IMG/VR virus record: IMGVR_UViG_2925939204_000003
Span: 1-32,291 of that record
DNA length: 32,291 nt
Strand: one strand, 5' to 3'
Origin: a virus
Taxonomy: Duplodnaviria; Heunggongvirae; Uroviricota; Caudoviricetes
Made by a program: the position numbers and the translations under genes. Shown in pieces: positions 4,763-24,023 of this stretch. Within the stretch, counting starts at the first letter, position 1. The number at the start of each line of letters is the position of its first letter. Below the pieces are notes generated by a model, which saw only the letters and a list, made by a program, of their open reading frames with translations, was not told where the DNA came from and searched no databases.

Positions 4763-4855
4763 TATTGGTAAACCTCATCACAGATTTAAGGGTGAACAAA
4801 TCTCTGCCATTGCTGACATATAAGAATGAAACTGGATATTTATTACGGTGCTGTT

Positions 4856-5047
4856 TTAAAATCCTGCCGGGATTTCGTTATTATCCTGGTGAATAACTTT
4901 ATCGACCGGATAACAGTTGCCTGGAATTTTCTGTTCGGTTGCTGCTGCCATACATTCCTGCTTTGTTCTGTGAACACTGACTGCAATATCAACTGGCTCT
5001 CCGGAAACAAGAAAAACCGTCAGAATAAGTGCAAATACTGGATTCAT
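4856..5047 (-). CDS. ydfD: YdfD-like small membrane protein (63 aa)
   Basis: Internal start MNPVFALILTVFLVSG with hydrophobic N-terminus; start overlaps dicB stop (ATGA); matches Qin operon order. Confidence 0.55.
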   Translation of the reverse strand: MNPVFALILTVFLVSGEPVDIAVSVHRTKQECMAAATEQKIPGNCYPVDKVIHQDNNEIPAGF

Positions 5048-5232
5048 TGTGCACATCCTTTTGGCATCAGACGTAAACGGGCCAGCATTGAAACAATGCA
5101 TACTTTATTTAATAACTCCCGTTCGTGTTTTCTTTTGTTAATGGCATCTTCAGTAAATACAGGATTACTGATAGTGACACCAATTTCAAAACAACCTTCA
5201 GACGTATTAACGTTTGGTAATAACGTTTTCAT
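5044..5232 (-). CDS. dicB: Cell division inhibitor DicB (62 aa)
   Basis: MKTLLPNVNTSEGCFEIGVTISNPVFTEDAINKRKHERELLNKVCIVSMLARLRLMPKGCAQ matches recalled DicB nearly residue for residue. Confidence 0.75.
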   Translation of the reverse strand: MKTLLPNVNTSEGCFEIGVTISNPVFTEDAINKRKHERELLNKVCIVSMLARLRLMPKGCAQ

Positions 5233-5401
5233 TATCGCGCCCTCAACAATGAGTTTTGTGATGCGGTGCCTGGTGCCTCCAGGTGACGTTAACCAGTTAA
5301 CAATTAACGCCGGATACAGAGAATCCACCCATAACACTGTTTTTGGTTTTAACTGTTCCGCGTGCGCTTAGCCGCATTCACCGCATCACAAAATTCACTT
5401 T

Positions 5402-5459
5402 AAAAAGGGCGGCAGAGCAGTCACGGAGTAAAACTGATACCGCCAAACGTCACCAGAAA
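5402..5459 (-). ncRNA. dicF: DicF small RNA (53 nt, 5407..5459) plus 3' U-tract of its intrinsic terminator
   Basis: Reverse complement reads UUUCUGGUGACGUUUGGCGGUAUCAGUUUUACUCCGUGACUGCUCUGCCGCCC then UUUUU; lies between ydfC and dicB as in Qin. Confidence 0.8.
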
Positions 5460-5799
5460 ATTGATAACAGAGGGCGTTGCAGCGGGGTTGTCACTTAAGC
5501 GTATGGTCAACCTGACAACCCGGTGTCCTCAACGGGGAAGGAATAACCCCGCCATACTTACCGCCGCGCCATTTCGCGGAGTGCCACAACCGGAAGCGCA
5601 CGGTCGACGAAAATTTAACGACAGGCTATCTATGAACCAGCTACCTCGCCGTGCGCTTTCGCGTTATGGTCTGACTTTTCAGGGAAATATCCTTTCAGTA
5701 AACTGTCAGTGCCGGATGCTCACCCGTGTCCGGCGCACGCACTCCACCTCACCCGTGGAGAACTCCTTAATTACCAACCTTAGCTTCGTTGGTTAGCTA

Positions 5800-6018
5800 T
5801 TAACGCGGGTATGTAATCATTCTGGCAATGCTTAATGCCGCTGCTTTTTCCAGATTGGTGATATCCTGCTCCAGAGCGGACAGATTTTCAGCCTGCTTAG
5901 CCCTGGCTTCATTAGCCCATTTCAGATCCTGCGCTGCATTAATTTTCTGGCGCATCCACTCATAAAGTTCATCATCGGTATAGTCTGGCGCGATTATGAC
6001 GGGTTCTCGTTTCTGCAT
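5800..6018 (-). CDS. ydfC: YdfC-like protein (72 aa)
   Basis: 72 aa ORF at the expected position upstream of DicF. Confidence 0.6.
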   Translation of the reverse strand: MQKREPVIIAPDYTDDELYEWMRQKINAAQDLKWANEARAKQAENLSALEQDITNLEKAAALSIARMITYPR

Positions 6019-6047
6019 ACTGATTCCTCGCGGTGCTACTTCGCTTA

Positions 6048-6176
6048 TCAGCCGTTAGATTTTGCCGAGCTGGAAAGCGCCTGTTTAAACTCACTGAAGC
6101 TGAGAGCTTCTTCGCCTTCGGCAAGGCCTTCGAAGTATTCTTCGTAAGCCTTTTCCATGATTGTGTCGAAATCCAT
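6048..6176 (-). CDS. ydfB: YdfB-like small protein (42 aa)
   Basis: Hand translation: MDFDTIMEKAYEEYFEGLAEGEEALSFSEFKQALSSSAKSNG; below the 60-aa ORF-track cutoff; sits between ydfA stop and ydfC. Confidence 0.55.
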   Translation of the reverse strand: MDFDTIMEKAYEEYFEGLAEGEEALSFSEFKQALSSSAKSNG

Positions 6177-6177
6177 A

Positions 6178-6333
6178 TCACTCACCTGAGTTTCTTTCCA
6201 GCCAGCGACGGGCACCATTTTCGGTTTTAAACGTTTTGCTTTTGGTATACGTCATCGCGGTGAACGTACCGTCCTGGTTGGGGAACACGCCACATACCAG
6301 AGATTCGCTGTTGCCAAGATCGATAGTATCCAT
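6178..6333 (-). CDS. ydfA: YdfA-like small protein (51 aa)
   Basis: Internal start MDTIDLGNSESLVCGVFPNQDGTFTAMTYTKSKTFKTENGARRWLERNSGE within ORF 6178..6414. Confidence 0.6.
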   Translation of the reverse strand: MDTIDLGNSESLVCGVFPNQDGTFTAMTYTKSKTFKTENGARRWLERNSGE

Positions 6334-6514
6334 GCTGACCTCATTTCCCCTTAACGCCGGGGTAGCGGAACAAAAACCTGCTGCATAGTTATTAAAGTTG
6401 AACCCTGCCGTCATGTTCTTACGCCTCGGGCTGGCTACTTAACCCCTGACCACTGCCTGGTAACTCGAAGTATTGCCCTGCATTCTGTGGGGCGGGGTGG
6501 GTTGGTATGCCGTT

Positions 6515-6534
6515 AAGGTAACAAGAGTTACCTT
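6515..6534. promoter_or_regulatory. Left operator candidate: palindrome AAGGTAAC-AAGA-GTTACCTT (core GTAAC-N4-GTTAC) with overlapping leftward promoter (-35 TTGACT on minus strand)
   Basis: Same GTAAC-N4-GTTAC core occurs twice in the repressor/cro intergenic region. Confidence 0.5.
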
Positions 6535-6575
6535 TCGAGTCAATACGATGTTGCAAAAGGTACATTTGAGAGCGT

Positions 6576-6600
6576 GAAAAACCCGCAATGAATGCGGGTT
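6576..6600 (-). terminator. Intrinsic terminator downstream of repressor gene
   Basis: Minus strand reads AACCCGCA-ttcat-TGCGGGTT followed by TTTTC. Confidence 0.6.
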
Positions 6601-6605
6601 CTGAC

Positions 6606-7280
6606 TCAGTCTAAGTATTGATGTATTTGTGAAACTTTACCTTTAATGGTGTAACCACCATTCAGTTCGATGGGTTTGTAAAGCGGATTCAGTGACAACA
6701 GATAGATGTTTGGTCCGTCAATCGCAACTTTTTTTAGTGTTACGTTTGGCGTTCCTTCCAATTGGATTAAGATTATTTTTCCCACCAGTTCTCTAATGTT
6801 ACTTGAGCATGGTGTGATCAGCACGGTAGATCCATCGGGGATGGTTGGGAGGCCGTTAGAGTTTGTCATCGCATCTCCCTCAACATGCAATAAAAAAGAG
6901 TTTTCAGCGGTTTTTGTCATGACATCAACCCAATTCTTAATGCCAGGAATCTCGGTTACTGGACAACTCATATCCCAATAACCAGCCTGTTCCCACGTTA
7001 AAACGGGCAACCGGGCGATGTTGTCACTAATGTAAAGATACTGATTCAGACGCAGATCATCGGTTTTATCGTGACCGTCCTTTCCATAAAGAATCCATTC
7101 AGGAGATTTGGAAAGCAATTTTGACAGTAGATGCAAATTCTCACCGTCAGGTTTTGAAGAGCCATTTTCCCATTTTGTTACGGATACACGAGATATGCCG
7201 ATTGCTTTCGCAACCTGCTGTTGGGTTAATCCAACGTCTTTTCGACGATTCCGAATACGTTCGCTGATAGTGTTTTTCAT
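6606..7280 (-). CDS. Prophage repressor, P22 C2 / lambda CI type (N-terminal HTH, C-terminal S24 LexA-like peptidase domain)
   Basis: N-terminus MKNTISERIRNRRK..LTQQQVAKAIGISRVSVTKWENG aligns with recalled P22 C2; S24 domain in C-terminal half; start set at M34 of the track ORF because the upstream extension is TTG-initiated and runs through the operators. Confidence 0.8.
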   Translation of the reverse strand: MKNTISERIRNRRKDVGLTQQQVAKAIGISRVSVTKWENGSSKPDGENLHLLSKLLSKSPEWILYGKDGHDKTDDLRLNQYLYISDNIARLPVLTWEQAGYWDMSCPVTEIPGIKNWVDVMTKTAENSFLLHVEGDAMTNSNGLPTIPDGSTVLITPCSSNIRELVGKIILIQLEGTPNVTLKKVAIDGPNIYLLSLNPLYKPIELNGGYTIKGKVSQIHQYLD

Positions 7281-7294
7281 GTAACCAATGTTAC
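7281..7294. promoter_or_regulatory. Operator GTAAC-CAAT-GTTAC abutting repressor start codon (OR3-like; PRM -10 TAACAT inside it, leaderless arrangement)
   Basis: Perfect 5-bp half-sites with 4-bp spacer immediately upstream of the ATG. Confidence 0.5.
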
Positions 7295-7315
7295 CACCAA
7301 GTGATGTTGCTATGG

Positions 7316-7321
7316 TTGACA
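7316..7321 (+). promoter_or_regulatory. Candidate PR -35 hexamer TTGACA for the cro-like gene
   Basis: Consensus -35 seen; no convincing -10 at 17-bp spacing, so promoter assignment is tentative. Confidence 0.35.
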
Positions 7322-7328
7322 TTGCTAT

Positions 7329-7342
7329 GTAACTATTGTTAC
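7329..7342. promoter_or_regulatory. Operator GTAAC-TATT-GTTAC in repressor/cro intergenic region
   Basis: Second copy of the same palindrome, 48 bp from the first. Confidence 0.5.
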
Positions 7343-7371
7343 TCTCCTGCTCGAAATAACAGGAGAGTTTT

Positions 7372-7587
7372 ATGTTCAAAGATGATGTTCTGCGCTATTT
7401 CAAAAAAAAGCGACTAGTAGCTGAGGCTCTTGGAATTTCACATGTGGCTGTTGTGCGGTGGCAAGCAGTTATTCCCAAACTTCGCGCAATGGAACTGGAT
7501 GAAATTACTAACGGTGAATTGAAATACAACCCAGAACTTTACAAGAAGCAGGATAGCACCTCGAACGAAGGAAAGAATGATTCATGA
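7372..7587 (+). CDS. Cro-like small HTH regulator (YdaS-like)
   Basis: 71 aa, divergent from repressor, SD AGGAGA upstream; HTH-like LVAEALGISHVAVVRW. Confidence 0.6.
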   Translation: MFKDDVLRYFKKKRLVAEALGISHVAVVRWQAVIPKLRAMELDEITNGELKYNPELYKKQDSTSNEGKNDS

Positions 7588-8009
7588 AAATCAAGCATGA
7601 ACACATCCGCATGGCGATGAATGCCTGGGCGCATCCGGACGGCGAAAAAGTACCGGCTGCGAAAATTACCAAAGCGTATTTCGAGCTGGGAATGACGTTC
7701 CCGGAACTGTATGACGACAGCCATCCGGAAGCCCTGGCTCGCAATACCCAGAAAATTTTCCGCTGGGTAGAGAAAGACACCCCTGATGCAGTTGAAAAAA
7801 TTCAGGCGTTGTTACCAGCGATCGAAAAGGCAATGCCACCTTTGCTGGTGGCCAGAATGCGCAGCCACAGTTCAGCTTATTTTCGGGAGCTGGTGGAGAC
7901 GCGGGAGCGACTGGTGAGAGACGCTGATGATTTTGTCGCAGTGGCAATCGCCGGTTTCAATCAGATGAACCGTGGTGGCCCGGCAGGAAATGCTGTGGCA
8001 GTACATTGA
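7584..8009 (+). CDS. YdaT-like regulatory protein (CII-position)
   Basis: 141 aa starting MKIKHEHI; start overlaps cro-like stop (ATGA). Confidence 0.5.
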   Translation: MKIKHEHIRMAMNAWAHPDGEKVPAAKITKAYFELGMTFPELYDDSHPEALARNTQKIFRWVEKDTPDAVEKIQALLPAIEKAMPPLLVARMRSHSSAYFRELVETRERLVRDADDFVAVAIAGFNQMNRGGPAGNAVAVH

Positions 8010-8080
8010 CTGACAATAGCCATATCGAATCGCTTCCGGCAACTCGTGAGTAAAAAGATTCGGTATCAGAAGAGGTGAGT

Positions 8081-9151
8081 ATGGCTAACGCTTGGCTCAG
8101 ATTATGGCATGACATGCCAAATGACCCTAAGTGGCGAACAATTGCCAGGGTGTCAGGGCAGCCAATTGCAACAGTGATGGCAGTGTATATCCACCTCCTG
8201 GTGAGCGCGTCACGAAATGTCACGCGAGGTCACATTGATGTCACGACAGAAGATTTAGCAAGTGCGCTCGACGTGACAGAAGAGGTAATTGATTCAATTT
8301 TGCAGACGATGCAGGGGCGGGTACTTGATGGTGATTTAATCACTGGATGGGAAAAACGCCAGGTGCTTAAAGAGGACAACGGCAATATTTCGCAAACCGC
8401 AAAATCTCCGGCAGAGCGCAAGAGGGCGCAGCGAGAGAGGGAAAGAAAGCGGGAACAAAATGGCGATTGTCACGGCGCGTCACGAAATGTCACGCACATG
8501 TCACGACGAGTCACGACAGATAAAGATACAGATAAAGATACAGATCAAGAAGATCAAAACACTATGGTCCATGGCGTAAAAAACGCCACGAACCAGGCAG
8601 GGGATGTTCAGACCGTCAATCCTGGTCAGCCAGCAGGCACGACACCGGAAGCCGATTCAGCGTATGCGCTGAAAGCCGATTCGGGCGCTGTGCAGCAGGT
8701 GATGACCCCAAGGCCGGAGCAATCACACCAACTGCAGCAGCCTGAAGCCGATTCCGCCATTCAGCGGGAAGCCGATCGGGTAGTCCCGGAAAACACCGGG
8801 CTGTCTGTGGGACGAGTGGATTATCCGGATGTGTTCGAACAGGTCTGGCGGGAGTACCCGTTGCGTGCCGGAGCAAACCCGAAGAAATCCGCTTTCAGTG
8901 CCTGGAAGGCCAGATTACGCGAGGGGGTGCCACCAGAGGCCATGCTGGATGGCGTGAGGCGTTACGCAAGATACTTGGCGGCTACCGGGAAAACGGGAAC
9001 GGAATTTGTTCAGCGAGCGACGACGTTTTTTGGACCGGACCGGAATTTTGAGAACCCCTGGTTGCTCCCGGTAAGCGGCACGAACAACCAGCGTTGTGTG
9101 AATCATATTTCTGAACCGGATAACGAAATTCCGCCGGGCTTCAGGGGGTAA
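8081..9151 (+). CDS. Replication initiator (lambda O-like organisation with origin inside the gene)
   Basis: Early-right position; iteron clusters and AT-rich tract inside ORF; D/K/T-rich linker DKDTDKDTDQEDQ; ATG 8081 with SD AGAGGTGAG preferred over GTG 8075. Confidence 0.55.
   Translation: MANAWLRLWHDMPNDPKWRTIARVSGQPIATVMAVYIHLLVSASRNVTRGHIDVTTEDLASALDVTEEVIDSILQTMQGRVLDGDLITGWEKRQVLKEDNGNISQTAKSPAERKRAQRERERKREQNGDCHGASRNVTHMSRRVTTDKDTDKDTDQEDQNTMVHGVKNATNQAGDVQTVNPGQPAGTTPEADSAYALKADSGAVQQVMTPRPEQSHQLQQPEADSAIQREADRVVPENTGLSVGRVDYPDVFEQVWREYPLRAGANPKKSAFSAWKARLREGVPPEAMLDGVRRYARYLAATGKTGTEFVQRATTFFGPDRNFENPWLLPVSGTNNQRCVNHISEPDNEIPPGFRG
8209..8245. repeat. Iteron cluster 1: four GTCACG/GTCACA repeats at about 10-bp spacing
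   Basis: Repeats at 8209, 8219, 8229, 8240. Confidence 0.55.
8469..8560. repeat. Iteron cluster 2 (five GTCACG repeats) followed by AT-rich tract with direct repeat GATAAAGATACA x2; putative replication origin
   Basis: Repeats at 8469, 8479, 8489, 8500, 8510, then AT-rich 8518..8560. Confidence 0.55.
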
Positions 9152-9191
9152 GTGTTAATTTCTGGTCATGAGGTAATTTTCAGGAGGACTT

Positions 9192-9617
9192 GTGGCAAAA
9201 GTTTTTACACAAGAAGAGCGGGAAAAAATTAAAGGGCAGGTTGTTGAACTCGTACGCCGGAGTGGGCGCGAGACGTTACGGCAACTGGAAGCCAAGACAG
9301 GTGCGACAAGATATCTGATGAGCGTTCTTGCCAGAGAGCTGGTTGCCAGTGGCGATGTATACAACTCTGGTTACGGGTTATTCCCGTCTGAACAGGCGCG
9401 TAAGGACTGGCAAAATGCCCGCAAAAAACTCTCAAGGGCAAAGGTGAAGAAACCTGCAGTGGTTGATCCGGACCTTATCTGGTCGTTACCAGACGGCGAA
9501 ATACGCCGCTACGACAGGCGCCTGAATATAATCTGTCGCGAGTGCCGGAAGAGCGAAGCTATGCAGCGTGTACTGGCATTTTATCAAGGAAATGTTAGGT
9601 ATTTTAGACGTTACTAG
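9192..9617 (+). CDS. Hypothetical protein
   Basis: 141 aa ORF, GTG start with strong SD AGGAGG; no family recognised. Confidence 0.45.
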   Translation: MAKVFTQEEREKIKGQVVELVRRSGRETLRQLEAKTGATRYLMSVLARELVASGDVYNSGYGLFPSEQARKDWQNARKKLSRAKVKKPAVVDPDLIWSLPDGEIRRYDRRLNIICRECRKSEAMQRVLAFYQGNVRYFRRY

Positions 9618-9770
9618 ATTAAAGAGCATTAGTTCAGATGTGAATTGACATTTTCATGGCGCAGGGTAGAGCCAGCGTGGTTGTCCGCTTTGCGTCAAAA
9701 CCAGATATTACCAGATTTAGACATATATTCCCGATAGCCCTGCTCTGATGCTACACTCTGTGCTATTTTC

Positions 9771-10457
9771 ATGACCCCAATAAAAATATTTATGACTATT
9801 GCTGATTTCAAACGGCCTAAATTGGAGCTCCCAAACGGGGCAAACAAACTACTACTGCACTCTTGCTGTGCTCCATGTTCCGGTGAAGTGATGGAGGCGC
9901 TTCAGGCCTCGGGAATCGACTACACCATCTTTTTCTACAACCCGAACATTCATCCTCAGAAAGAGTATTTAATTCGTAAGGATGAAAATATTCGCTTTGC
10001 TGAACAACACGGCGTGCCGTTTATCGATGCTGATTACGACACCGACAACTGGTTTGAACGTGCCAAAGGAATGGAATGGGAGCCTGAGAGGGGGATCCGT
10101 TGTACCATGTGTTTTGACATGCGTTTTGAGCGGACAGCGTTGTACGCTGCTGAAAATGGTTTCAGTGTGATCAGCAGTTCACTGGGCATTTCACGCTGGA
10201 AAAATATGCAGCAGGTTAACGAGTGTGGGCGGCGAGCTGTTGCGCATTATCCGGGTATGGTGTACTGGGATTATAACTGGCGCAAGCAGGGCGGCTCGTC
10301 CCGTATGATTGAAATCAGCAAGCGCGAAAAATTCTATCAGCAGGAATATTGTGGCTGTGTGTATTCTCTGCGCGATACCAATCTACACCGCAAATCTCAG
10401 GGACGCCCTCTTATCAAAATTGGCCAACTCCACTACGGAAAAGAAGAGAAGGAGTGA
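9771..10457 (+). CDS. DUF208 family protein, epoxyqueuosine reductase QueH-like
   Basis: Motifs [44 protein letters not shown] match recalled QueH Cys pattern; start may be the second Met (9792). Confidence 0.6.
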
Positions 10458-10584
10458 TTTTATGGATCACCTTTCTGATTGATTTCATATTGGCGAGGTG
10501 ACGTGAGTTAAGTAGAATGGCTGCGGGTGCTTGAGGCTATCTGTCTCAGGCATGAACACTGAAAGGCAGATAGAGAAAAGCCCC

Positions 10585-10646
10585 AGTTAACATTACGCGT
10601 CCGGCAAGACGCTTAACATTAATCTGAGGCTCAATCTATGAACGGC
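10585..10646 (-). ncRNA. Predicted Sok-like antisense RNA of the hok locus
   Basis: Minus-strand promoter -35 TTGCCT (10676..10681) and -10 TAACCT (10653..10658) at 17-bp spacing, placed as in plasmid R1 hok/sok; extent of RNA approximate. Confidence 0.3.
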
Positions 10647-10694
10647 AAATCTAGGTTAGCCTCTTACGTGCCGAAAGGCAAGGAGAAGCAGGCT

Positions 10695-10850
10695 ATGAAG
10701 CAGCAAAAGGCGATGTTAATCGCCCTGATCGTCATCTGTTTAACCGTCATTGTGACGGCACTGGTAACGAGGAAAGACCTCTGCGAGGTACGAATCCGAA
10801 CCGGCCAGACGGAGGTCACTGTCTTCACAGCTTACGAACCTGAGGAGTAA
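10695..10850 (+). CDS. hok: Hok-family type I toxin (51 aa)
   Basis: MKQQKAMLIALIVICLTVIVTALVTRKDLCEVRIRTGQTEVTVFTAYEPEE matches Hok (HokD/RelF-like); SD AAGGAGAAG; conserved upstream leader motif TAGCCTCTTAC. Confidence 0.75.
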   Translation: MKQQKAMLIALIVICLTVIVTALVTRKDLCEVRIRTGQTEVTVFTAYEPEE

Positions 10851-10993
10851 GAGACCAGGCGGGGGAGAAATCCCTCGCCACCTCTGATGTGTCAGGCATC
10901 CTCAACGCACCCGCACTTAACCCGCTTCGGCGTTTTTTCCGTTGATTAACTCTAGTTATTAGAGAACCGAACTTTTATTGATGGGGCAGGGAG

Positions 10994-11386
10994 ATGAAGA
11001 AACTTGTTTTAGTCGCAGGTGTAATGATTGCAACAGTAATGTTGGGAGGGTGTGCAGCAAAGGTCGATCCAGCGTTGAAAGCAGAAGCAATGAAGCCACT
11101 AACATGTAATGATGAAAAGCAATGTGACTTTTATTGGAAACGAGCGCAATTCTGGTTGGCTAATAATTCCTCATGGAAAATTCAAACGGCGACAGACACG
11201 CTAATTTCCACTTATAATCCCTCTCCAAATAGTCCATTCCTCGCTTATCAGGTGAGTAAAATGCCAAATGAAGATGGATCCTCAAGAATTTTCATCAAGC
11301 CTTTTTGCGATAATATGTTTGGCTGTCAACCAAACCCCTATCAGGCAGTTGTTTCCTTTAAAAACTTCGTTAAAACAGGGCAGTAG
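10994..11386 (+). CDS. Putative lipoprotein, unknown function (cargo gene)
   Basis: Signal peptide with lipobox MLGG-C; AT-rich relative to neighbours. Confidence 0.6.
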   Translation: MKKLVLVAGVMIATVMLGGCAAKVDPALKAEAMKPLTCNDEKQCDFYWKRAQFWLANNSSWKIQTATDTLISTYNPSPNSPFLAYQVSKMPNEDGSSRIFIKPFCDNMFGCQPNPYQAVVSFKNFVKTGQ

Positions 11387-11585
11387 TGTATAGCTTGGAC
11401 GATAAATTATTAGTGAAAACGCCGTAAACCCTCACCCAATGTGGACTAAGTCTATCAAACATGACTGTGATGATTAGTCCGTAGTTGTTGCCTATGAAAT
11501 CTGGATTGAGTCAGGGTTTAATCCAATAATTATTCTATCGTTCCTTTACAAGTCCGGTATATTACTTTCAGTTTGTTTTAGCATA

Positions 11586-11610
11586 CCCGCTTCGGCGGGT
11601 TTTGTTTTTT
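11586..11610 (+). terminator. Intrinsic terminator
   Basis: CCCGC-TTCG-GCGGG followed by TTTTGTTTTTT. Confidence 0.6.
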
Positions 11611-11682
11611 CCTGGCATTCTGGTTTACAATTCGCACGCCAGCCTGAACAACTGGCACCTGCTGCGCCAGCAGAGACAACCG

Positions 11683-11961
11683 ATGGCGCACGATACCAAA
11701 TTACACAATTCTGATGATTCTGCCGTCTTTGCCAGCAGGCACGGGCGGCGTTCCCGCACTTTCAAATCTGACTGGTTCCAGCATGACCCATGTACTGAAG
11801 AACAGGCCGAATGGCTAATTCATAACTATCGCAGACGCGGATACGAGATTAAGAAAGCCCTCAGCCTCGATTATCGTCACTGGATAATCTATGTCAGGCT
11901 CCCTTATTCCGAACGCCCACCGCGCCCATCCCGCACATACCAGCAACGGATCTGGAGGTAA
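11683..11961 (+). CDS. Hypothetical protein, translationally coupled to downstream DUF968 gene
   Basis: ORF 11602..11961; internal Met chosen; stop 2 nt before downstream GTG start; start uncertain. Confidence 0.35.
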   Translation: MAHDTKLHNSDDSAVFASRHGRRSRTFKSDWFQHDPCTEEQAEWLIHNYRRRGYEIKKALSLDYRHWIIYVRLPYSERPPRPSRTYQQRIWR

Positions 11962-11962
11962 C

Positions 11963-13012
11963 GTGCGGATATTACTTCGACCTGTTCTGGTACCGGAACT
12001 CGGGCTGGTGGTCCTTAGGCCGGGCCGTGAATCCATGCAAGTATTTCATAACCCTCGAGTGCTGGTGGAGCCTGAACCGAAAAGCATGCGCGGTCTGCCG
12101 TCCGGAGTCGTCCCTGCCGTTCGCCAGCCGCTGGCGGAGGATAAATCATTACTGCCATTTTTCAGCGATGAGCGGGTGATTCGTGCTGCTGGCGGCGCTG
12201 GGGCACTGTCTGACTGGCTGTTGCGTCATGTCAAATCCTGCCAGTGGCCTCATGGTGACTATCATCACAGTGAAATCGTCATACATCGTTACGGTACCGG
12301 CGCGATGGTGTTGTGCTGGCACTGCGACAACCAGTTGCGTGACCAGACATCCGAATCACTCGGGCAACTTGCTCATCAAAACCTGTCAGCATGGATGATT
12401 GACGTCATACGCCATGCAATGAATGGCACGCAGGAGCGGGAATTGTCGCTGGCTGAATTATCCTGGTGGGCGGTCTGCAATCAGGTGGCGGACGCGCTTC
12501 CGGAGGCAGTATTACGTCGTTCTCTGGGGTTACGTGCGGAAAAAATCCGCTCCTTGTACCGCGAAAGCGACATCGTACCGGGAGAGCAGACCGCCACCAG
12601 CATACTGAAGCAGCGCACAAAAAATCTTGCGCCGTTGCCTCATGCCCACCAGCAACAGAACCCACCACAGGAAAAGACGGTGGTATGCATCACCGTTGAT
12701 CCGGAGTCTCCGGAATCTTTCATGAGGCGACCTAAACGTCGCCGTTGGGTAAATGAGAAATATACGCGCTGGGTGAAGACACAGCCGTGTGCGTGTTGTG
12801 GTCAGCCAGCCGACGATCCCCATCACCTGATTGGTCACGGTCAGGGAGGGATGGGAACAAAGGCCCACGATATTTTCACGCTACCGTTGTGCCGGGAACA
12901 TCACAACGAACTTCATGCGGATCCGCTGGCGTTCGAAGAAAAGCATGGTTCCCAGGTTGATTTAATTTTTCGTTTTCTTGATCACGCCTTTGCAACCGGC
13001 GTGCTCGGGTAA
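11963..13012 (+). CDS. DUF968 family phage protein (YdfU-like) with C-terminal HNH-like Cys/His motif
   Basis: GTG start with SD GGAGG gives 349 aa; C-terminal CACCGQPADDPHH..CREHHNELH; upstream part of the track ORF overlaps the previous gene. Confidence 0.55.
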   Translation: MRILLRPVLVPELGLVVLRPGRESMQVFHNPRVLVEPEPKSMRGLPSGVVPAVRQPLAEDKSLLPFFSDERVIRAAGGAGALSDWLLRHVKSCQWPHGDYHHSEIVIHRYGTGAMVLCWHCDNQLRDQTSESLGQLAHQNLSAWMIDVIRHAMNGTQERELSLAELSWWAVCNQVADALPEAVLRRSLGLRAEKIRSLYRESDIVPGEQTATSILKQRTKNLAPLPHAHQQQNPPQEKTVVCITVDPESPESFMRRPKRRRWVNEKYTRWVKTQPCACCGQPADDPHHLIGHGQGGMGTKAHDIFTLPLCREHHNELHADPLAFEEKHGSQVDLIFRFLDHAFATGVLG

Positions 13013-13024
13013 AAGAGGTTACTG

Positions 13025-13384
13025 ATGCGTATAGAGTTTGTTTTGCCTTATCCGCCGACGGTGAATACTTACTGGCGACGTCGTGGCAACACATATTTTG
13101 TATCAAAAGTCGGTGAGCGTTATCGCCGTGATGTGGCACTAATTGTTCGCCAGCAGCGGTTGAAATTAAACCTGTCCGGAAGGCTGGCAATAAAAATTAT
13201 TGCAGAGCCACCGGATAAGCGCCGCCGCGACCTGGACAATATCCTGAAGGCACCACTGGATGCGCTGACGCATGCCGGACTTCTCATAGACGACGAGCAG
13301 TTTGATGAAATCAATATTGTGCGCGGACTGCCTGTTCCTGGTGGTCGGCTGGGGATAAAAATCACAGAACTGGAGTGCGCATGA
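13025..13384 (+). CDS. rusA: Holliday junction resolvase RusA
   Basis: 119 aa with RRRDLDN catalytic motif, LPxPPSxN N-terminus and GGRL C-terminal motif. Confidence 0.8.
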   Translation: MRIEFVLPYPPTVNTYWRRRGNTYFVSKVGERYRRDVALIVRQQRLKLNLSGRLAIKIIAEPPDKRRRDLDNILKAPLDALTHAGLLIDDEQFDEINIVRGLPVPGGRLGIKITELECA

Positions 13385-14070
13385 ATAACCAGTATTTACA
13401 GTTTGTGCGTGAGCAGCTCATTATCGCTACCGCTGATTTGAGTGGGGCAACAAAAGGTCAGCTTGAAGCCTGGCAGGAGAATGCCATGTTTGATACAGGG
13501 CGTTACAGGCGTAAAAAAATCCGGTACCACGATGAAGTGACTGGAAGAATGATAACGCGGGATAGTCCACCGATACCGGGAAAACAATCACTGGCGAAAG
13601 GCTCATCAATTGCTCTGGTAAGTCAGGTTGAGTTTTCGACATCATCATGGCGACGGGCAGTTCTGTCTCTTGAAGAACATCATAAAGCCTGGTTGTTGTG
13701 GTGTTACAGCGGGAGTATTTGTTGGGAATATCAGATCGCGATAACACAGTGGGCGTGGAATGAATTTAATACTCAATCCGGTACCAGAAAAATTGCAGGG
13801 AAAACGCAGGAACGCCTGAAAAAATTAATCTGGCTGGCGGCGCAGGCAGTAAAAGCAGAACTTTTTGGTGGGGAAGGTTATGAATACCAGGAGCTGGCAT
13901 TACTGGCGGGAGTGACAACTAAAAACTGGTCCAAAACATTTACTCGTCACTGGGTTGCAATGAAACACATTTTTCACCGACTTGATAGTGAGGCTTTATT
14001 GTTTGTAATGAGAACACGTTCAAAACAAAAGGCGGCATTTTCAAAGCAAAGTGTTGCAAAAGTAGATTGA
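13381..14070 (+). CDS. Putative late-gene regulator at the Q antiterminator position
   Basis: Positional only: directly downstream of rusA, start overlaps rusA stop, immediately upstream of pR'/tR'-like elements and lysis genes; no recognised Q motif. Confidence 0.45.
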   Translation: MNNQYLQFVREQLIIATADLSGATKGQLEAWQENAMFDTGRYRRKKIRYHDEVTGRMITRDSPPIPGKQSLAKGSSIALVSQVEFSTSSWRRAVLSLEEHHKAWLLWCYSGSICWEYQIAITQWAWNEFNTQSGTRKIAGKTQERLKKLIWLAAQAVKAELFGGEGYEYQELALLAGVTTKNWSKTFTRHWVAMKHIFHRLDSEALLFVMRTRSKQKAAFSKQSVAKVD

Positions 14071-14082
14071 AAGGCATATATT
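14054..14082 (+). promoter_or_regulatory. Candidate late promoter pR': -35 TTGCAA, 17-bp spacer, -10 TATATT
   Basis: Near-consensus sigma70 promoter spanning the end of the Q-position gene. Confidence 0.5.
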
Positions 14083-14135
14083 TCATGCAAATCTGATATT
14101 TTGCCGATTTTGTACGTGATGGCAAAAGCAAACAA

Positions 14136-14160
14136 AACCCGCCCACAAGCGGGTTTTTTG
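14136..14160 (+). terminator. Intrinsic terminator (tR'-like)
   Basis: AACCCGC-ccacaa-GCGGGTT followed by TTTTTT, about 55 nt downstream of the candidate pR' start. Confidence 0.6.
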
Positions 14161-14264
14161 TGCCACTTATCTCGGATAGACATGGTGAATGCGCTGGTGG
14201 AGGAGATAAGGGTGATTTTTGAATGCTTGCAACATTGATTTCGTAACGTTATTATCCTGCGCCC

Positions 14265-14340
14265 GGCCCTTTAGCTCAGTGGTGAGAGCGAGCGACTCAT
14301 AATCGCCAGGTCGCTGGTTCAAATCCAGCAAGGGCCACCA
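14265..14340 (+). tRNA. tRNA-Ile2 (anticodon CAU, lysidine type; ileX/ileZ-like)
   Basis: Clean cloverleaf; anticodon loop CUCAUAA; close to recalled E. coli ileX sequence. Confidence 0.8.
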
Positions 14341-14341
14341 G

Positions 14342-14418
14342 CCGCCACTAGCTCATCAGGAAAGAGCGTCAACCCTTTAAGTTGAGTGTGCGAGGTTCGA
14401 GTCCCCGGTGGCGGTCCA
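14342..14418 (+). tRNA. tRNA-like gene, anticodon ambiguous (loop CCUUUAA, nominal UUU); possibly degenerate
   Basis: Acceptor, D and anticodon stems pair; position 33 is C not U; one A-C mismatch in T-stem. Confidence 0.45.
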
Positions 14419-14420
14419 GT

Positions 14421-14496
<76 letters not shown>

Positions 14497-14499
14497 TAT

Positions 14500-14574
<75 letters not shown>

Positions 14575-14580
14575 GTTAGA

Positions 14581-14626
14581 GTCTTTCAGTCTGCGATGAT
14601 GGGAAATCCCGGAGTGACTGAAAGAC
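14581..14626 (+). other. Hairpin: 11-bp perfect inverted repeat GTCTTTCAGTC / GACTGAAAGAC with 24-nt loop containing an inner GGGA/TCCC stem
   Basis: Seen directly, just after tRNA-Gly. Confidence 0.5.
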
Positions 14627-14633
14627 GTTTAAG

Positions 14634-14706
14634 TTATGAATGATCGCCTTTTTTTGCAAAATTGCTGTGCAGAAATACTAACCTTCGGGCAGGCGATCAT
14701 TCATAA
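14634..14706 (+). other. 15-bp perfect inverted repeat TTATGAATGATCGCC / GGCGATCATTCATAA separated by 43 nt
   Basis: Seen directly in non-coding region between tRNAs and holin. Confidence 0.5.
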
Positions 14707-14866
14707 GCACTCTGCTTTTATTCCGATTAACTGTGGGTGGTTTGTTGGATAGAGTGCTTTCCTTTCTGTATATATCGTTTCGCCCGCTTTTGCGGTTTTT
14801 TCTTTTCAAATCCCTTTCATTTCTCAGTGTAAAACTACGCCATCCGTTATTTGCGGAGGTGAGGCT

Positions 14867-15082
14867 ATGAAATCCATGGACAAAATTTCAACGGGCATTG
14901 CCTACGGCACCTCCGCAGGCAGTGCTGGCTACTGGTTTTTACAGTGGCTTGATCAGGTCAGTCCGTCACAGTGGGCTGCGATTGGTGTACTGGGGAGTCT
15001 GGTTCTGGGCTTCCTGACTTATCTGACAAATCTGTACTTCAAAATCAGAGAAGACAAGCGTAAGGCTGCACGGGGAGAGTAA
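14867..15082 (+). CDS. S: Class II holin, phage 21 S21 pinholin type, dual-start (antiholin from M1, holin from M4 at 14876)
   Basis: [29 protein letters not shown].. matches recalled S21; two TM segments; Met-Lys-Ser-Met dual start. Confidence 0.8.
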
Positions 15083-15086
15083 TTCA

Positions 15087-15401
15087 ATGACTCAAAACTA
15101 TGAACTGATTGTGAAAGGGATCCGCAATTTTGAGAATAAAGTTACGGTAACTTTAGCGTTACGGGACAAAAAACGCTTTGACGGTGAAATTTTTGGCTTG
15201 GACATCTCGCTGGACCGTGTTGAAGGTGCCGCGCTGGAGTTTTATGAGGCAGCAGCCAGAAGGAGCATCAGACAGGTCTTCCTGGATGTTGCTGCCGGGT
15301 TATGTGAAGGGGACGAGCTGTTGCCAGAAACGCGCCCCTGTTCAGAGGCGCGGTATACCATAAAAATTAACAGTTCTGATAACTCGATTACAGGTTGTTA
15401 G
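15087..15401 (+). CDS. Hypothetical protein inserted between holin and endolysin
   Basis: 104 aa ORF with SD GGAGAG 8 nt upstream; no recognised family. Confidence 0.5.
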   Translation: MTQNYELIVKGIRNFENKVTVTLALRDKKRFDGEIFGLDISLDRVEGAALEFYEAAARRSIRQVFLDVAAGLCEGDELLPETRPCSEARYTIKINSSDNSITGC

Positions 15402-15456
15402 CTTTTTGCAGTTGGCTTTCCAGTATCTTTCATTGGTAGCATCCTGATAAATATCC

Positions 15457-15990
15457 ATGAGCGCAAAAATCAAATACGGCCTGTCAGCTGCTGTTCTGGC
15501 GCTGATTGCTGCAGGCGCGTCTGCTCCTCAAATACTTGACCAGTTTCTGGATGAAAAAGAGGGTAACCACACTACGGCATACCGCGATGGTTCCGGTATA
15601 TGGACCATCTGTCGTGGTGCCACAATGGTGGATGGTAAGCCCGTCATACCGGGAATGAAGCTGTCGAAGGAAAAATGCGACCAGGTTAACGCTATTGAAC
15701 GTGATAAGGCGCTGGCATGGGTGGAGCGCAATATTAAAGTACCACTGACCGAACCACAGAAAGCGGGTATAGCGTCATTCTGTCCCTATAACATTGGCCC
15801 CGGTAAGTGTTTCCCGTCGACGTTTTATAAGCGGCTGAATGCCGGTGATCGTAAGGGCGCATGCGAGGCGATTCGCTGGTGGATAAAAGATGGTGGGCGC
15901 GATTGCCGCATACGTTCAAATAACTGCTATGGACAGGTTATTCGTCGTGACCAGGAAAGCGCATTAGCCTGTTGGGGGATAGATCAGTGA
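15457..15990 (+). CDS. R: SAR (signal-anchor-release) endolysin, lysozyme family
   Basis: N-terminal Ala/Gly-rich segment [17 protein letters not shown] followed by lysozyme-like domain; pairs with pinholin. Confidence 0.8.
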
Positions 15991-16454
15991 GCAGAGTCGC
16001 AGCGATTATTTATACTCTGGTTATCTGCACCATCGTCTGCCTGTCGTGGGCGGTCAATCATTACCGTGATAACGCCATCGCCTACAAAGAACAGCGTGAT
16101 AAAAAAGTCAGTGAGCTGAAGCAGGCGACTGCCACCATCGCTGACATGCAACAGCGTCAGCGTGATGTTGCTGCGCTCGATGCAAAGTACTCGAGAGAAT
16201 TAGCCAATGCGAAAGCTGAAAATGAAACTCTGCGCGCTGATGTTGCCGCTGGTCGTAAGCGCCTGCGGGTCAATGCCAGTTGCTCCGCAGCCGTGCGTGA
16301 AGCCACCGGACCCACCAGCGTGGATAATGCAACCAGCCCCCGACTGGCAGACACCGCTGAACGGGATTATTTCACCCTCAGAGAACGGTTGATGACGATG
16401 CAGAAGCAACTGGAAGGGGCACAGCTATACATTCGTGAGCAATGTCTCAGATAA
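15987..16454 (+). CDS. Rz: Rz-like inner-membrane spanin
   Basis: GTG start overlapping endolysin stop (GTGA) with SD GGGGGA; N-terminal TM then coiled-coil-like region. Confidence 0.7.
16207..16392 (+). CDS. Rz1: Rz1-like outer-membrane lipoprotein spanin embedded in Rz in +1 frame
   Basis: Lipobox VVSA-C and Pro-rich mature region; entirely inside Rz. Confidence 0.65.
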
Positions 16455-16594
16455 AAAACGGCCAAGGATAATCCGCTAAAGATTCGCCGGTGGCGAAAGA
16501 GAGCCAAGGTGTCAACCTACGCTATTACTTATGATAATGCAACAGACGAAGCGGGACATTCAGGTGCATAACAAAGCGTGGCAGGTGAACTGCA

Positions 16595-16622
16595 AACCTG
16601 AAAAGGCGCAAAAATCTGCGCC
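16595..16622 (-). terminator. Intrinsic terminator downstream of GNAT gene (minus strand)
   Basis: GGCGCA-gattt-TGCGCC followed by TTTTCAGGTTT on minus strand. Confidence 0.5.
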
Positions 16623-16632
16623 AGAATGGTAG

Positions 16633-17118
16633 TTATTTTGTGGTTTTGAAAAGTTTCATGTACTGATTGATAGGTTTTCCTGAGTAAGAATCTGTCCCTG
16701 GCTCAGGAGTATCAGATAAAACTTTTGCAGCTAATTTGTTGGAGGCTTGATTACCAACCCCGACAATAGCCTCTACATAGAATTCATTGAAGGAATTTCT
16801 AAATCCGTATTGCATTTCTTCAATGCTGGCGATGAGAAGTTGAGTACCGATGCCTTGCGCTTTATATTCATCGGCTACTGCATAGCCAACGCCAAAGCAT
16901 GGTTTACCTTCAACAAACTCTGCAGGGACATATATAGCAACACCTTTAACATTTTCTCCTTCAAAGAATGCATAAGTAAACCGTGGCGTACCCTCTGCAT
17001 CATCCAAAAGCACCTTCATATTTGGGTGAACTATGCATGGTGAAGGCTTAATCAGACCATTAGAAAAGGCGTATTGAAAACTAATTAATGAGTCTGTTGG
17101 ATCAACGAGTTCTGGCAT
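16633..17118 (-). CDS. GNAT family N-acetyltransferase (cargo gene, opposite strand)
   Basis: 161 aa; acetyl-CoA binding motif AQGIGTQLL; AT-rich; flanked by AT-rich intergenic DNA. Confidence 0.6.
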   Translation of the reverse strand: MPELVDPTDSLISFQYAFSNGLIKPSPCIVHPNMKVLLDDAEGTPRFTYAFFEGENVKGVAIYVPAEFVEGKPCFGVGYAVADEYKAQGIGTQLLIASIEEMQYGFRNSFNEFYVEAIVGVGNQASNKLAAKVLSDTPEPGTDSYSGKPINQYMKLFKTTK

Positions 17119-17362
17119 TTTGAGTCCTATGTATTTTGATATAAGCGATTCAACATACTACTTTCTTACGTTTAATTCTTTAACATTAACGAGCCAGGAT
17201 ACGAAATTTTGAAAAAGAGTAAAGTTTTTAATAATTCATTCAAAGCATATCGCATGTGCACATCTAAGAAAGGCTTTCAGCTGTGAGCCTGGGTAAACCG
17301 TAAACTTTCGGCGACTCTGCCGTGCGACAGGTTCACGTCTAACATGTCTAAAAGGAAGAGTT

Positions 17363-17563
17363 ATGAAGTTTCAGGCCGCTAAACTGTATCGTGGTAAACA
17401 TTTCGCAGGGTATGGGATTGCAGTTGATGGTGAGTTACTGGAAGGGCAGCTTTCCGCCAGGACAGAGTCACGCGGAGGCGAGCCACCAACAGTCACTGTG
17501 ACTTTCAGACTGACAGCAGAACATATCGAGAATCAGCCCGTCATTCAACTGAACAGGGGGTGA
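17363..17563 (+). CDS. Hypothetical small protein
   Basis: 66 aa with SD AAGGAAG; no family recognised. Confidence 0.45.
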   Translation: MKFQAAKLYRGKHFAGYGIAVDGELLEGQLSARTESRGGEPPTVTVTFRLTAEHIENQPVIQLNRG

Positions 17564-17570
17564 GGTATTT

Positions 17571-18122
17571 ATGCCATCACGAATCCCACGCGCCTGCCGT
17601 AAGCGTGGATGTGCAGGTACAACCACAGACAGTTCTGGTTACTGCGATAAACATCGTGGCGAAGGATGGGTACAGCATCAACGCGGACTGAGCCGCCACC
17701 AGCGTGGCTACTTCCTGCACTGTTACCGTCAGTTAATGAGGATAGATGTGATGACTAAAAATATCCGTAATCTGGCACTGGCAGCGATGTCGGGGTTTCG
17801 CCATAAAACTGTTGATGTGCCTGAATGGGAAGGGGCAACGGTTGTATTACGGGAACCTTCTGCAGAAGCCTGGTTGCGCTGGCAGGAGATCGTTAAAGCA
17901 AAAGATGATGAGACACCGTTATCCGTTGCGGAGCTCGCCCGCCGAAATCTGGAAGCGGATGTTGAACTGTTCATCGATGTTCTGTGTGATACCGGACTGC
18001 AACCTGTATTTTCAGTGGATGATCGTGAACAGGTGATTGCCGTGTATGGCCCGGTGCATGCGCGGCTTCTTCGGCAGTCTCTGGAACTGATCAGTGATGC
18101 CGGCGAGGTTAAAAAAAAGTAG
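17571..18122 (+). CDS. Tail assembly chaperone G-like, with N-terminal Cys-rich extension; alternative start 17751
   Basis: Directly upstream of tape measure; ends in slippery A-AAA-AAG then TAG; both 17571 (SD GGTGAGG) and 17751 (SD GAGGA) are plausible starts. Confidence 0.55.
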   Translation: MPSRIPRACRKRGCAGTTTDSSGYCDKHRGEGWVQHQRGLSRHQRGYFLHCYRQLMRIDVMTKNIRNLALAAMSGFRHKTVDVPEWEGATVVLREPSAEAWLRWQEIVKAKDDETPLSVAELARRNLEADVELFIDVLCDTGLQPVFSVDDREQVIAVYGPVHARLLRQSLELISDAGEVKKK

Positions 18123-22734: not shown

Positions 22735-23478
22735 ATGACAGAGACAGAATCAGCGATTCTGGCGCACGCCCGGCGATGTGCGCCAGCGGAGTCGTGCGGC
22801 TTCGTGGTGAGAACGCCGGAGGGGGACAGATATTTTTCCTGCGTGAATATCTCCGGTGAGCCGGAGGCGTATTTCCGGATGTCGCCGGAGGACTGGCTGC
22901 GTGCACAAATGCAGGGGGAGGTTGTGGCACTGGTCCACAGCCACCCCGGTGGTCTGCCCTGGCTGAGTGAGGTCGACAGGCGGCTGCAGGTGCAGAGTGA
23001 TTTGCCGTGGTGGCTGGTCTGCCGGGGGGCGATTCACAAGTTCCGCTGTGTGCCACATCTTACCGGGCGGCGCTTTGAGCACGGGGTGACGGACTGTTAC
23101 ACGCTGTTCCGGGATGCATACCATCTGGCGGAAATTGAGATGCCGGATTTTTATCGCGGGGATGACTGGTGGCGTAACGGCCAGAATCTCTATCTTGACA
23201 ATATGGAGGCGACTGGTTTTTACCGTGTCGCACTGACAGAGGCGCAGCCGGGCGATGTGCTGCTGTGCTGTTTTGGTTCATCGGTGCCGAATCATGCCGC
23301 CATTTACTGCGGCGACGGCGAGCTGCTGCACCATATTCCTGAACAACTGAGCAAACGAGAGAGGTATACCGACAAATGGCAGCGACGCACACACTCCCTC
23401 TGGCGTCACCGGGCATGGCACGCATCTGCCTTTACGGGAATTTACAACGATTTGGTCGCCGTATCGACCTTCGTGTGA
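22735..23478 (+). CDS. Tail assembly protein K (JAB/MPN plus NlpC/P60-like)
   Basis: HSHPGG motif and high similarity to recalled lambda K; start MTETESAIL. Confidence 0.8.
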   Translation: MTETESAILAHARRCAPAESCGFVVRTPEGDRYFSCVNISGEPEAYFRMSPEDWLRAQMQGEVVALVHSHPGGLPWLSEVDRRLQVQSDLPWWLVCRGAIHKFRCVPHLTGRRFEHGVTDCYTLFRDAYHLAEIEMPDFYRGDDWWRNGQNLYLDNMEATGFYRVALTEAQPGDVLLCCFGSSVPNHAAIYCGDGELLHHIPEQLSKRERYTDKWQRRTHSLWRHRAWHASAFTGIYNDLVAVSTFV

Positions 23479-24023
23479 AAACGGGGGCCGAAGCCATCCG
23501 GGCGCTGGCCATGCAGATCCCGGCGTTTCGTCAGAAACTGAGTGACGGCTGGTATCAGGTACGGATTGCCGGGCGTGATGCAGGTGAAACCGAATTGTCT
23601 GCCCGTCTTAATGAGCCGCTGGCAAATGGTGCCGTGATCCACATCGTTCCGCGTCTGGAGGGGGCCAAAAGTGGCGGTGTGTTTCAGGCGGTGCTGGGTG
23701 CGGCGCTGATTGCGGTGGCATGGTGGAACCCTGTGGGCTGGCTGGGGGCCGCGGCTGTATCGGGTATGTATGCAGCAGGGGCCAGTATGATCCTGGGTGG
23801 TGTGGCGCAGATGCTGGCACCGAAAGCCAGGACGCCCACGGCAGCCAGTACAGATAACGGCAAACAGAACACGTATTTCTCGTCACTGGATAACATGGTT
23901 GCCCAAGGCAATGTTCTGCCCGTTCTGTACGGTGAAATGCGTGTGGGGTCGCGGGTGGTATCTCAGGAGATCAGCACGGCAGATGAAGGTGATGGTGGTC
24001 AGGTTGTGGTGATTGGTCGCTGA
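23376..24023 (+). CDS. Tail assembly protein I
   Basis: N-terminus MAATHTLPLASPGMARICLYG and C-terminus GDGGQVVVIGR match recalled lambda I; overlaps K by about 100 nt. Confidence 0.75.
   Translation: MAATHTLPLASPGMARICLYGNLQRFGRRIDLRVKTGAEAIRALAMQIPAFRQKLSDGWYQVRIAGRDAGETELSARLNEPLANGAVIHIVPRLEGAKSGGVFQAVLGAALIAVAWWNPVGWLGAAAVSGMYAAGASMILGGVAQMLAPKARTPTAASTDNGKQNTYFSSLDNMVAQGNVLPVLYGEMRVGSRVVSQEISTADEGDGGQVVVIGR

Follow-up and report, generated by a model that had tools for sequence, protein, structure and literature searches.

In lambdoid phages, including phage 82, the late promoter pR' is constantly active and its transcripts are terminated at once in lysogeny, which yields a short RNA (PMC7547250). 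Three families of the Q antiterminator are recognized that are mutually unrelated in sequence: PF06323, PF03589 (lambda Q), and PF06530 (Q21) (PMC7171158). In the lambda pR'-qut-tR' region, the late promoter is constitutive and has a Q-binding element (QBE) between its -35 and -10 hexamers. Polymerase pauses close to the promoter in a sigma70-dependent manner, and a terminator follows immediately, which gives the short 6S RNA. The QBE of 82 pR' also sits between -35 and -10 (PMC4914094). 82 pR' further has a -10-like pause element that is nearer to TATAAT than that of lambda and includes an extended -10 (TG), followed by GCC at +15-17 and an AT-rich stretch at +18-25 (PMC5001585). Pauses occur at +25/+26, with U at +25 and, relative to the pause, G at -11 and none at -10 (PMC5001585).

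StxS, a short RNA of Shiga-toxin phages, results from early termination at tR' just past a constitutive pR' and is an Hfq-dependent regulator (PMC7547250). It is processed from a longer precursor. IsrJ is a Northern-verified RNA of the Salmonella prophage Gifsy-1 (PMC2330248). It is 74 nt long and ends in a Rho-independent terminator; its 5' end was mapped by primer extension, and from a plasmid it is expressed by its own promoter (PMC2330248; PMC4825925). Transcription of IsrJ in lysogens is high in every condition tested (10.1101/787010), and an isrJ deletion mutant shows reduced invasion and effector translocation (PMC2330248).

The window analyzed here, a whole stretch of 32,291 nucleotides, contains E. 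coli chromosome (mtfA, tRNA-Ser) followed by a lambdoid prophage. The early part of the prophage encodes an integrase, an exonuclease, and DicF, followed by an S24-type repressor, Cro, and YdaT. QueH, hok/sok, a DUF968 protein, and RusA precede the Q gene, after which come four tRNAs, a lysis cassette, and tail genes. Terminase and head genes are absent from the prophage. E. coli AR_0128 is 100% identical to the window at positions 1-17710 and again at 22985-31150, where the AR_0128 stretch that was compared ends. At least 80% of the segment 13381-14600 is found in 898 of 5,426 complete E. coli genomes, or about one in six.

We conclude that positions 14054-14162 very probably constitute the late-gene control region (pR' with an embedded qut site, then tR') of a phage-82-type lambdoid prophage. 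The features on which this assignment draws, and those that surround them, are as follows.

13381-14070, plus strand: Q antiterminator gene of the Q82 family (229 aa), with its TGA stop at 14068-14070
14054-14059, plus strand: pR' -35 hexamer TTGCAA, within the octamer TTGCAAAA (14054-14061) and inside the last Q codons
14058-14076, plus strand: putative QBE (-31 to -13), located from the 82 pR' work (PMC4914094)
14077-14082, plus strand: pR' -10 hexamer TATATT (-12 to -7), near-invariant among relatives
14089, plus strand: predicted transcription start (+1), seven bases past the -10 and uncertain by about 3 nt
14094-14105, plus strand: predicted sigma70-dependent pause element, matching published 82 pR'
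14094-14095, plus strand: TG, extended -10 (+6/+7)
14097-14102, plus strand: TATTTT, -10-like (+9 to +14)
14103-14105, plus strand: GCC (+15 to +17)
14106-14113, plus strand: AT-rich stretch GATTTTGT (+18 to +25)
14113-14114, plus strand: predicted site of the promoter-proximal pause (+25/+26), where the AT-rich stretch ends, with T at +25 (14113)
14099-14127, plus strand: possible leader hairpin UUUUGCC...GGCAAAA in the minimum-energy fold, its 5' arm overlapping the pause element
14134-14159, plus strand: intrinsic terminator tR' (hairpin and T-run), with a predicted RNA 3' end at about 14159-14162
14227-14255, plus strand: second sigma70-like promoter, TTGCAA-17-TATTAT, from the promoter scan
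14265-14574, plus strand: four tRNA genes which, together with the promoter at 14227-14255, are the first cargo 3' of tR'
14867-16454, plus strand: lysis cassette of class II holin, DUF1327 protein, lysozyme, and Rz (Pfam accessions PF04971, PF07041, PF00959, and PF03245; PGAP)

The original prediction described the upstream protein as 231 aa long and without a recognizable Q motif. The protein matches Pfam family PF06323 (E 1.3e-89, residues 4-220 on profile positions 1-217 of 220), which is its sole Pfam family at E <= 0.01; neither lambda Q (PF03589) nor Q21 (PF06530) gave a match. Its identity to phage 82 Q (record X92588) is 78.2% across all 229 residues, and with the Q82-like protein of phage 434 it shares 73%; PGAP names an identical gene ‘bacteriophage antitermination protein Q’. 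A sequence search of a PDB copy with the Q protein returned no structure of detectable sequence similarity. By homology, the upstream gene product is a true, full-length Q82-family antiterminator. Its most likely start is the ATG at 13381 (229 aa, MNNQYL...), which overlaps the rusA stop codon and matches the start in all annotated homologues, and not the GTG at 13375 that would give 231 aa.

The predicted promoter is present in the sequence, with TTGCAA at 14054-14059 and TATATT at 14077-14082 separated by 17 bp; its description as near-consensus was too generous. The two hexamers match the consensus at 4/6 and 5/6 positions (9/12), and a promoter scan recovered 15 sites of this 9/12 type in 12 kb compared with 12.5 +/- 4.2 in shuffles. 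By themselves, the hexamers stand at chance level, and their meaning comes from position and conservation. The promoter had also been placed after the Q gene. This holds for the -10, which the stop codon TGA (14068-14070) precedes, and fails for the -35, which lies inside the last Q codons.

We put +1 at 14089 because GCC then falls on +15-17 and U on +25, as published for 82 pR'. With this start, the window fits each feature of 82 pR' stated in the text of the papers, in exact register. Record X92588 of authentic phage 82 reaches no further than the Q stop; downstream comparison relies on the near-identical PhiR47_2 and on the positions given in the papers' text. In all four loci that it matches, the Rfam isrJ model starts 3 nt before the 82-register +1 (at 14086 in the window), which leaves the start site uncertain by 2-3 nt. 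Full-text literature searches with promoter and leader sequence strings returned nothing relevant.

The resemblance to phage 82 thus begins with a shared Q family (78% identity) and an identical -35 octamer, TTGCAAAA, seen at the 3' end of phage 82 Q (TTGCAAAACTGGATTAA). By the published positions, the extended -10-like pause element, GCC at +15-17, and U+25 have a common register in the two systems, and phage 82 has a terminator within about 75 nt, as here. The leader differs from that of 82-like phages from +18 on, and the downstream cargo of the window, unlike that of phage 82, consists of four tRNAs. Phage 434, whose Q is annotated as Q82-like, conserves the -35, the -10, and the pause element. 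The 434 pause element reads TG-g-TATGTT and is followed by GTA rather than GCC, the leader is about 20 nt shorter with its T-run at +47, and no tRNAs come after it. Lambda follows the same logic with a Q from the unrelated family PF03589, in contrast to PF06323 here. In lambda, the -10-like element lies nine bp nearer to the start and the pause falls at +16/17 (PMC5001585), and termination occurs at +193 (PMC4914094) compared with about +72 predicted here.

Conservation was assessed in an alignment of 12 phages and prophages of E. coli, Enterobacter, Klebsiella, and Salmonella (Q identity 57-92%). Conservation counts were taken over 58 unique sequences from all fetched loci, five of which have lost 1 nt, so that their upstream columns are shifted. 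A genome-contig scan contributed four close loci and a viral-contig scan contributed relatives with 77-99% Q identity; diversity was supplied by individually retrieved phage records. Among the 53 of 58 relatives free of the indel, one sequence differs from TTGCAAAA, at one position, and the -10 is near-invariant. The octamer is invariant in the 12-phage alignment. T+6, T+9, A+10, T+14, and T+25 are invariant in all 58 unique relatives, and G+7 is present in 57.

The 52 bp from -35 to +17 are conserved as a unit and form the best-conserved DNA of the region across E. coli, Klebsiella, Enterobacter, and Salmonella phages. Identity to diverged phages is 77-87% in this block, compared with 55-67% in the flanking Q-coding DNA and about 36% from +18 on. 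In Gifsy-1, an isrK-c4-anrP module is inserted between Q and the block, and the -35 is no longer inside Q. The Gifsy-1 block keeps 77% identity while its flanks are unrelated (20-28%). Because identity in the block is far above that of the flanks and is kept in Gifsy-1 apart from Q, the unit under selection is, as judged from these comparisons, the qut site made up of promoter, spacer, and pause element, and not protein-coding sequence. The conserved cis unit of Q82-type phages can be defined as -35 to +17, followed by an interchangeable terminator.

The spacer that contains the putative QBE is unusually conserved in the 12-phage alignment, and its variants track Q clades. Relatives with Q at least 94% identical carry GTAGATTG, the 82-like group carries CTGGATTA, and the Klebsiella group carries CCGAACTG. 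This pattern is consistent with a cognate QBE, and plain co-divergence would give the same pattern. Between the window and the 82-like spacer, 14 of 19 positions of the putative QBE are identical. The specificity of Q could therefore differ from that of 82-like phages, given the five differences.

The tR' hairpin reads AAAACCCGC-CCACAA-GCGGGTTTT (14134-14157) and overlaps a six-T run at 14154-14159. Its stem (14134-14142 and 14149-14157) consists of five G-C and four A-U pairs, with a G+C core at 14138-14142 and 14149-14153 and a loop at 14143-14148. The strong intrinsic terminator that had been predicted is borne out, as the 35-nt segment 14128-14162 folds at -14.8 kcal/mol and none of 200 shuffles is as stable. 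The predicted distance of about 55 nt also agrees, measured from the end of the -10 hexamer to the G+C core of the stem (14138). The T-run begins at +66, so the predicted terminated RNA is about 72 nt long, longer than the roughly 60 nt first proposed and counted from +1 at 14089. The pR'-qut-tR' logic itself is supported by the Q82 family assignment, the 82 pR' register, the conserved block, and the 74-nt IsrJ made from the Gifsy-1 homologue.

A terminator scan reported tR' solely on the minus strand, likely because maximal extension of the stem consumes the T-run. On the plus strand, the 5-bp G+C stem that leads into TTTTTTGT makes a canonical terminator. A minus-strand reading was set aside, as no credible converging minus-strand gene ends there.

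The terminator hairpin is interchangeable among relatives. Nearly all of their distinct leaders have a hairpin directly followed by a T-run, which starts between +47 and +83 and mostly between +64 and +75. At least seven unrelated stem sequence types occupy this position, including CCCGC/GCGGG, CCTGTC/GGCAGG, GCCCGAGG/CCTTGGGC, GCCCGAAG/CTTTGGGC, and GCCTCGC/GCGGGGC. The third of these belongs to the 82-like PhiR47_2 and is unrelated to the CCCGC/GCGGG stem of the window. The depositors of phage 434 annotated the equivalent hairpin there as a terminator. In the E. coli subtype of the terminator, pairing holds in 97% of cells and one compensatory double change (CG to UA) is seen; formal covariation is weak, as 44 of 500 shuffles equal it. 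Replacement of the whole hairpin between subtypes is a stronger argument than covariation within one.

The leader hairpin at 14099-14127 was also considered. It is not significant in the window alone (z -0.9; 35 of 200 shuffles fold equally well). Comparable leader hairpins of other sequence are present in relatives and in the Rfam isrJ consensus.

The RNA predicted from this promoter resembles IsrJ in position and sequence. Positions 14086-14158 of the window align with the Rfam isrJ model (RF01393) over model positions 1-75 of 75, with 24.5 bits and an E value of 0.007-0.045. The gathering threshold of 37 bits is reached by Gifsy-1 (100 bits), Enterobacter phage CobraSix (63 bits), and a Klebsiella phage (57 bits), and is not reached by the window. 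IsrJ and the window share a pR'-type promoter start, the 5' sequence UG(C/U)AAAUCUGAUAU, two hairpins, and a U-tail, and their lengths are 74 nt and, as predicted, about 72 nt. The 5' 14 nt and the terminator position are common to both, whereas the window has other sequence in the middle 24 nt and in the terminator stem. In Gifsy-1, unlike the window, the isrK-c4-anrP module separates the element from Q. Given a match that runs end to end below threshold with its middle replaced, we class the window element, on alignment grounds, as a positional homologue of IsrJ and not as a member of the Rfam isrJ family.

A match to Rfam isrK (22.7 bits, sub-threshold) was rejected as homology, since it reflects generic hairpin and terminator features. 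The isrK of Gifsy-1 has a different promoter and sequence and is part of a P1-like c4/ant module.

The likeness to IsrJ raises the question of whether the element is mainly a small regulatory RNA gene of the IsrJ or StxS kind, constitutive in the lysogen and trans-acting, with its late-switch role secondary or lost. The end-to-end alignment with the isrJ model, the above-threshold scores of the Enterobacter and Klebsiella homologues, the phenotype of the isrJ deletion mutant (PMC2330248), and the StxS precedent (PMC7547250) all speak for such a role, as does a prophage that lacks head genes yet retains an intact control region. The score of the window itself, 24.5 bits against a threshold of 37, speaks against it. 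So does the distribution of conservation, which is concentrated in the DNA-level signals from -35 to +17 and collapses in the RNA body, the pattern of a qut site and not of a conserved seed or scaffold. We therefore regard a primarily regulatory RNA as rather unlikely. We would give a similarly low chance to the more specific proposal that the constitutive pR' RNA of about 72 nt is a divergent IsrJ-type riboregulator, carried by about one-sixth of complete E. coli genomes and, like StxS in Shiga-toxin phages, targeting host mRNAs in trans. Among the systems compared, Hfq binding and targets have been demonstrated for StxS only. A small RNA role would be an added function and is compatible with the late-switch explanation.

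Two further readings concern the promoter. The hairpin might merely end the early Q transcript, with the upstream hexamers a chance match that has no promoter activity. The 9/12 match does occur at chance frequency, and the terminator begins 64 nt past the Q stop codon, a position at which one would likewise expect a terminator that closes an operon. Chance, however, does not fit a -35, -10, TG, TAnnnT, and T+25 that are near-invariant across phages with 57-99% Q identity, a block that is kept in Gifsy-1 apart from Q, or an RNA 5' end that maps to the homologous position in IsrJ, and we find this reading highly improbable. The other possibility is that the second sigma70-like site at 14227-14255 is the true late promoter and the first site is irrelevant. 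This second site has an equal 9/12 score and equal spacing, and lies upstream of the tRNAs and lysis genes. Yet the site and the first tRNA are conserved with the upstream region of ileZ (tRNA-Ile) in Stx2 phages, which have an unrelated Q, and homology to these phages begins at its -35. The site is also missing from Q82-type relatives without the tRNA cluster, is followed by no -10-like pause element, and has no terminator before the tRNA, which begins about 3 nt past the expected start site. The second site is, by these comparisons, the tRNA module's own promoter and not pR', and there is very little chance that it is the late promoter instead.

The late-control reading thus predicts the following sequence of events. 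Host sigma70 RNA polymerase would start constitutively at about 14089. Sigma70 would then re-bind the TG-n-TATTTT sequence (+6 to +14), and the complex would pause at +25/+26 (14113/14114). Without Q, polymerase would resume and terminate at the hairpin and U-tract at 14134-14159, which would release the RNA of about 72 nt. Once Q82-family protein has accumulated, it would bind DNA between -35 and -10 and engage the paused complex, making it terminator-resistant. Transcripts would then extend past tR' into the tRNA cluster and on through the lysis and tail genes. By homology to phage 82 and other lambdoid phages, this locus is expected to show pausing, Q binding, and Q-dependent readthrough.

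The genomic order is consistent with such a switch, as Q (13381-14070), the element (14054-14162), and the holin, lysozyme, and Rz genes (14867-16454) lie on one strand in that order. The lysis cassette genes would be the first late protein genes to need readthrough of tR'. Since terminase and head genes are lacking, the switch may no longer serve virion production.

The element is an uncharacterized but typical member of the phage 82 late-control family, a textbook system, and these findings leave the understanding of Q antitermination unchanged. For a very common family of E. coli prophages, they place the late-switch promoter, pause element, pause site, and terminator to the base; none of these elements carried an annotation in the public records examined. 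What is mildly new is only that IsrJ-type RNAs are identified as Q82-type pR' leaders, a link that we did not find in the literature examined. That the terminated leader of the Q82-type late promoter in Gifsy-1 is none other than IsrJ, the Salmonella ‘virulence sRNA’, is better supported than the riboregulator proposal for the window RNA. If so, an isrJ deletion would also take out the qut site of the prophage, which suggests that isrJ deletion phenotypes should be reconsidered in the light of the prophage late switch.

DNA 3' of the terminator differs between otherwise identical relatives, which carry tRNAs, other cargo, or a holin at this position. Q, pR', and tR' thus travel as a module. 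The tRNA genes of the window have counterparts downstream in Stx phages, including the same ileZ-type tRNA. Stx phages show no DNA similarity upstream of the tRNA module, and the megablast match begins at window position 14212.

The Salmonella small RNA IsrJ (Rfam RF01393) occupies the same place as the short leader of the phage-82-type late promoter pR'. The coincidence is seen at three of the fetched comparison loci:

3015-3121 of L008 (prophage Gifsy-1, NC_010392.1), IsrJ and pR' leader
957-1030 of L009, IsrJ and pR' leader
938-1016 of L014, IsrJ and pR' leader

At each, the -35, -10 and pause element lie immediately 5' of IsrJ or at its 5' end. Gifsy-1 has approximately 840 bp between the antiterminator gene Q and the pR'/IsrJ block because an isrK/c4-like/anrP module intervenes. 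We did not find this connection stated in the literature searched.

A possible leader hairpin is present in the window at 14099-14127, with a 5' arm that overlaps the pause element. Leaders of the 82-like, 434 and Klebsiella types, as well as the Rfam isrJ consensus, have hairpins of differing sequence at the same position. Judged on the window sequence by itself, the hairpin is no better than shuffled versions (35/200).

Some E. coli and Shigella prophage copies of the region (L003, L004 to L006 and L067-type loci) seem to have decayed. In one, the -10 reads TATATC, the pause element reads TACTTT, and the terminator (CCGC/GCGG) is weak. Elsewhere, a single nucleotide is missing between the -10 and +1, or the terminator stem carries a mismatch (CCCTC). 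In the close relative PPompW, a G breaks the terminator T-run.

The pR' -35 also overlaps a minus-strand repeat, TTGCAACACTTTGC (14046-14059), that matches the CII-site consensus TTGC-N6-TTGC. Phage 434 has, at the aligned position, an annotated CII site with a paQ -35. The cII position of the window prophage is held by a YdaT-family gene (7584-8009), and the TTGC repeat is not retained in the Klebsiella and Enterobacter relatives. The repeat may be a mere codon by-product.

Downstream of the late terminator tR' lie tRNA genes and a second promoter:

14227-14255, sigma70-like promoter (TTGCAA-17-TATTAT) with its 3' end 9 nt ahead of the first tRNA
14265-14574, four tRNA genes separating tR' from the holin gene

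ARAGORN identifies the tRNAs as Met(CAT), Lys(TTT), Thr(TGT) and Gly(TCC); PGAP instead calls the CAT tRNA a lysidine-type tRNA-Ile. This tRNA shares 93% identity with the ileZ of Stx phages. Since the 14227-14255 promoter is also conserved upstream of ileZ in Stx2 phages bearing a different Q, the tRNA cluster has the look of an independent unit, carrying its own promoter and placed under tR'. PPompW carries Met/Lys/Arg tRNAs in place of the window's set. A 10-bp inverted repeat (ATGATCGCCT ... AGGCGATCAT, 41-nt gap) lies at 14640-14700, and the interval between the tRNAs and holin contains a hairpin resembling a weak terminator (CCGC-TTTT-GCGG, then six T, 14784-14801).

A sequence search of a PDB copy with the window's Q82-family protein (13381-14067) returned no similar chain (best E 0.5, to unrelated proteins). 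As judged by this search, the Q82 family has no solved relative.

The window also has matches to other Rfam RNAs, each above threshold, and prophage cargo genes:

5407-5458, minus strand, DicF
9771-10457, epoxyqueuosine reductase QueH homologue, cargo in the early-right region
10525-10700, plus strand, sok, accompanied by a hok-type ORF (10638-10850)
16633-17118, minus (opposite) strand, GNAT acetyltransferase, cargo between Rz and the tail genes
32053-32251, plus strand, IS009

Terminase, portal, capsid and major tail genes are all missing from the window prophage. At 17571-18122, a tail-assembly-chaperone gene is joined in frame to the initial 140 nt of a gene for an HNH endonuclease (junction 17710/17711), and the fused ORF has a Pfam match from residue 61 only. 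E. coli AR_0128 is identical to the window on both sides of this junction; it retains the HNH and terminase genes but lacks the portal-to-K genes.
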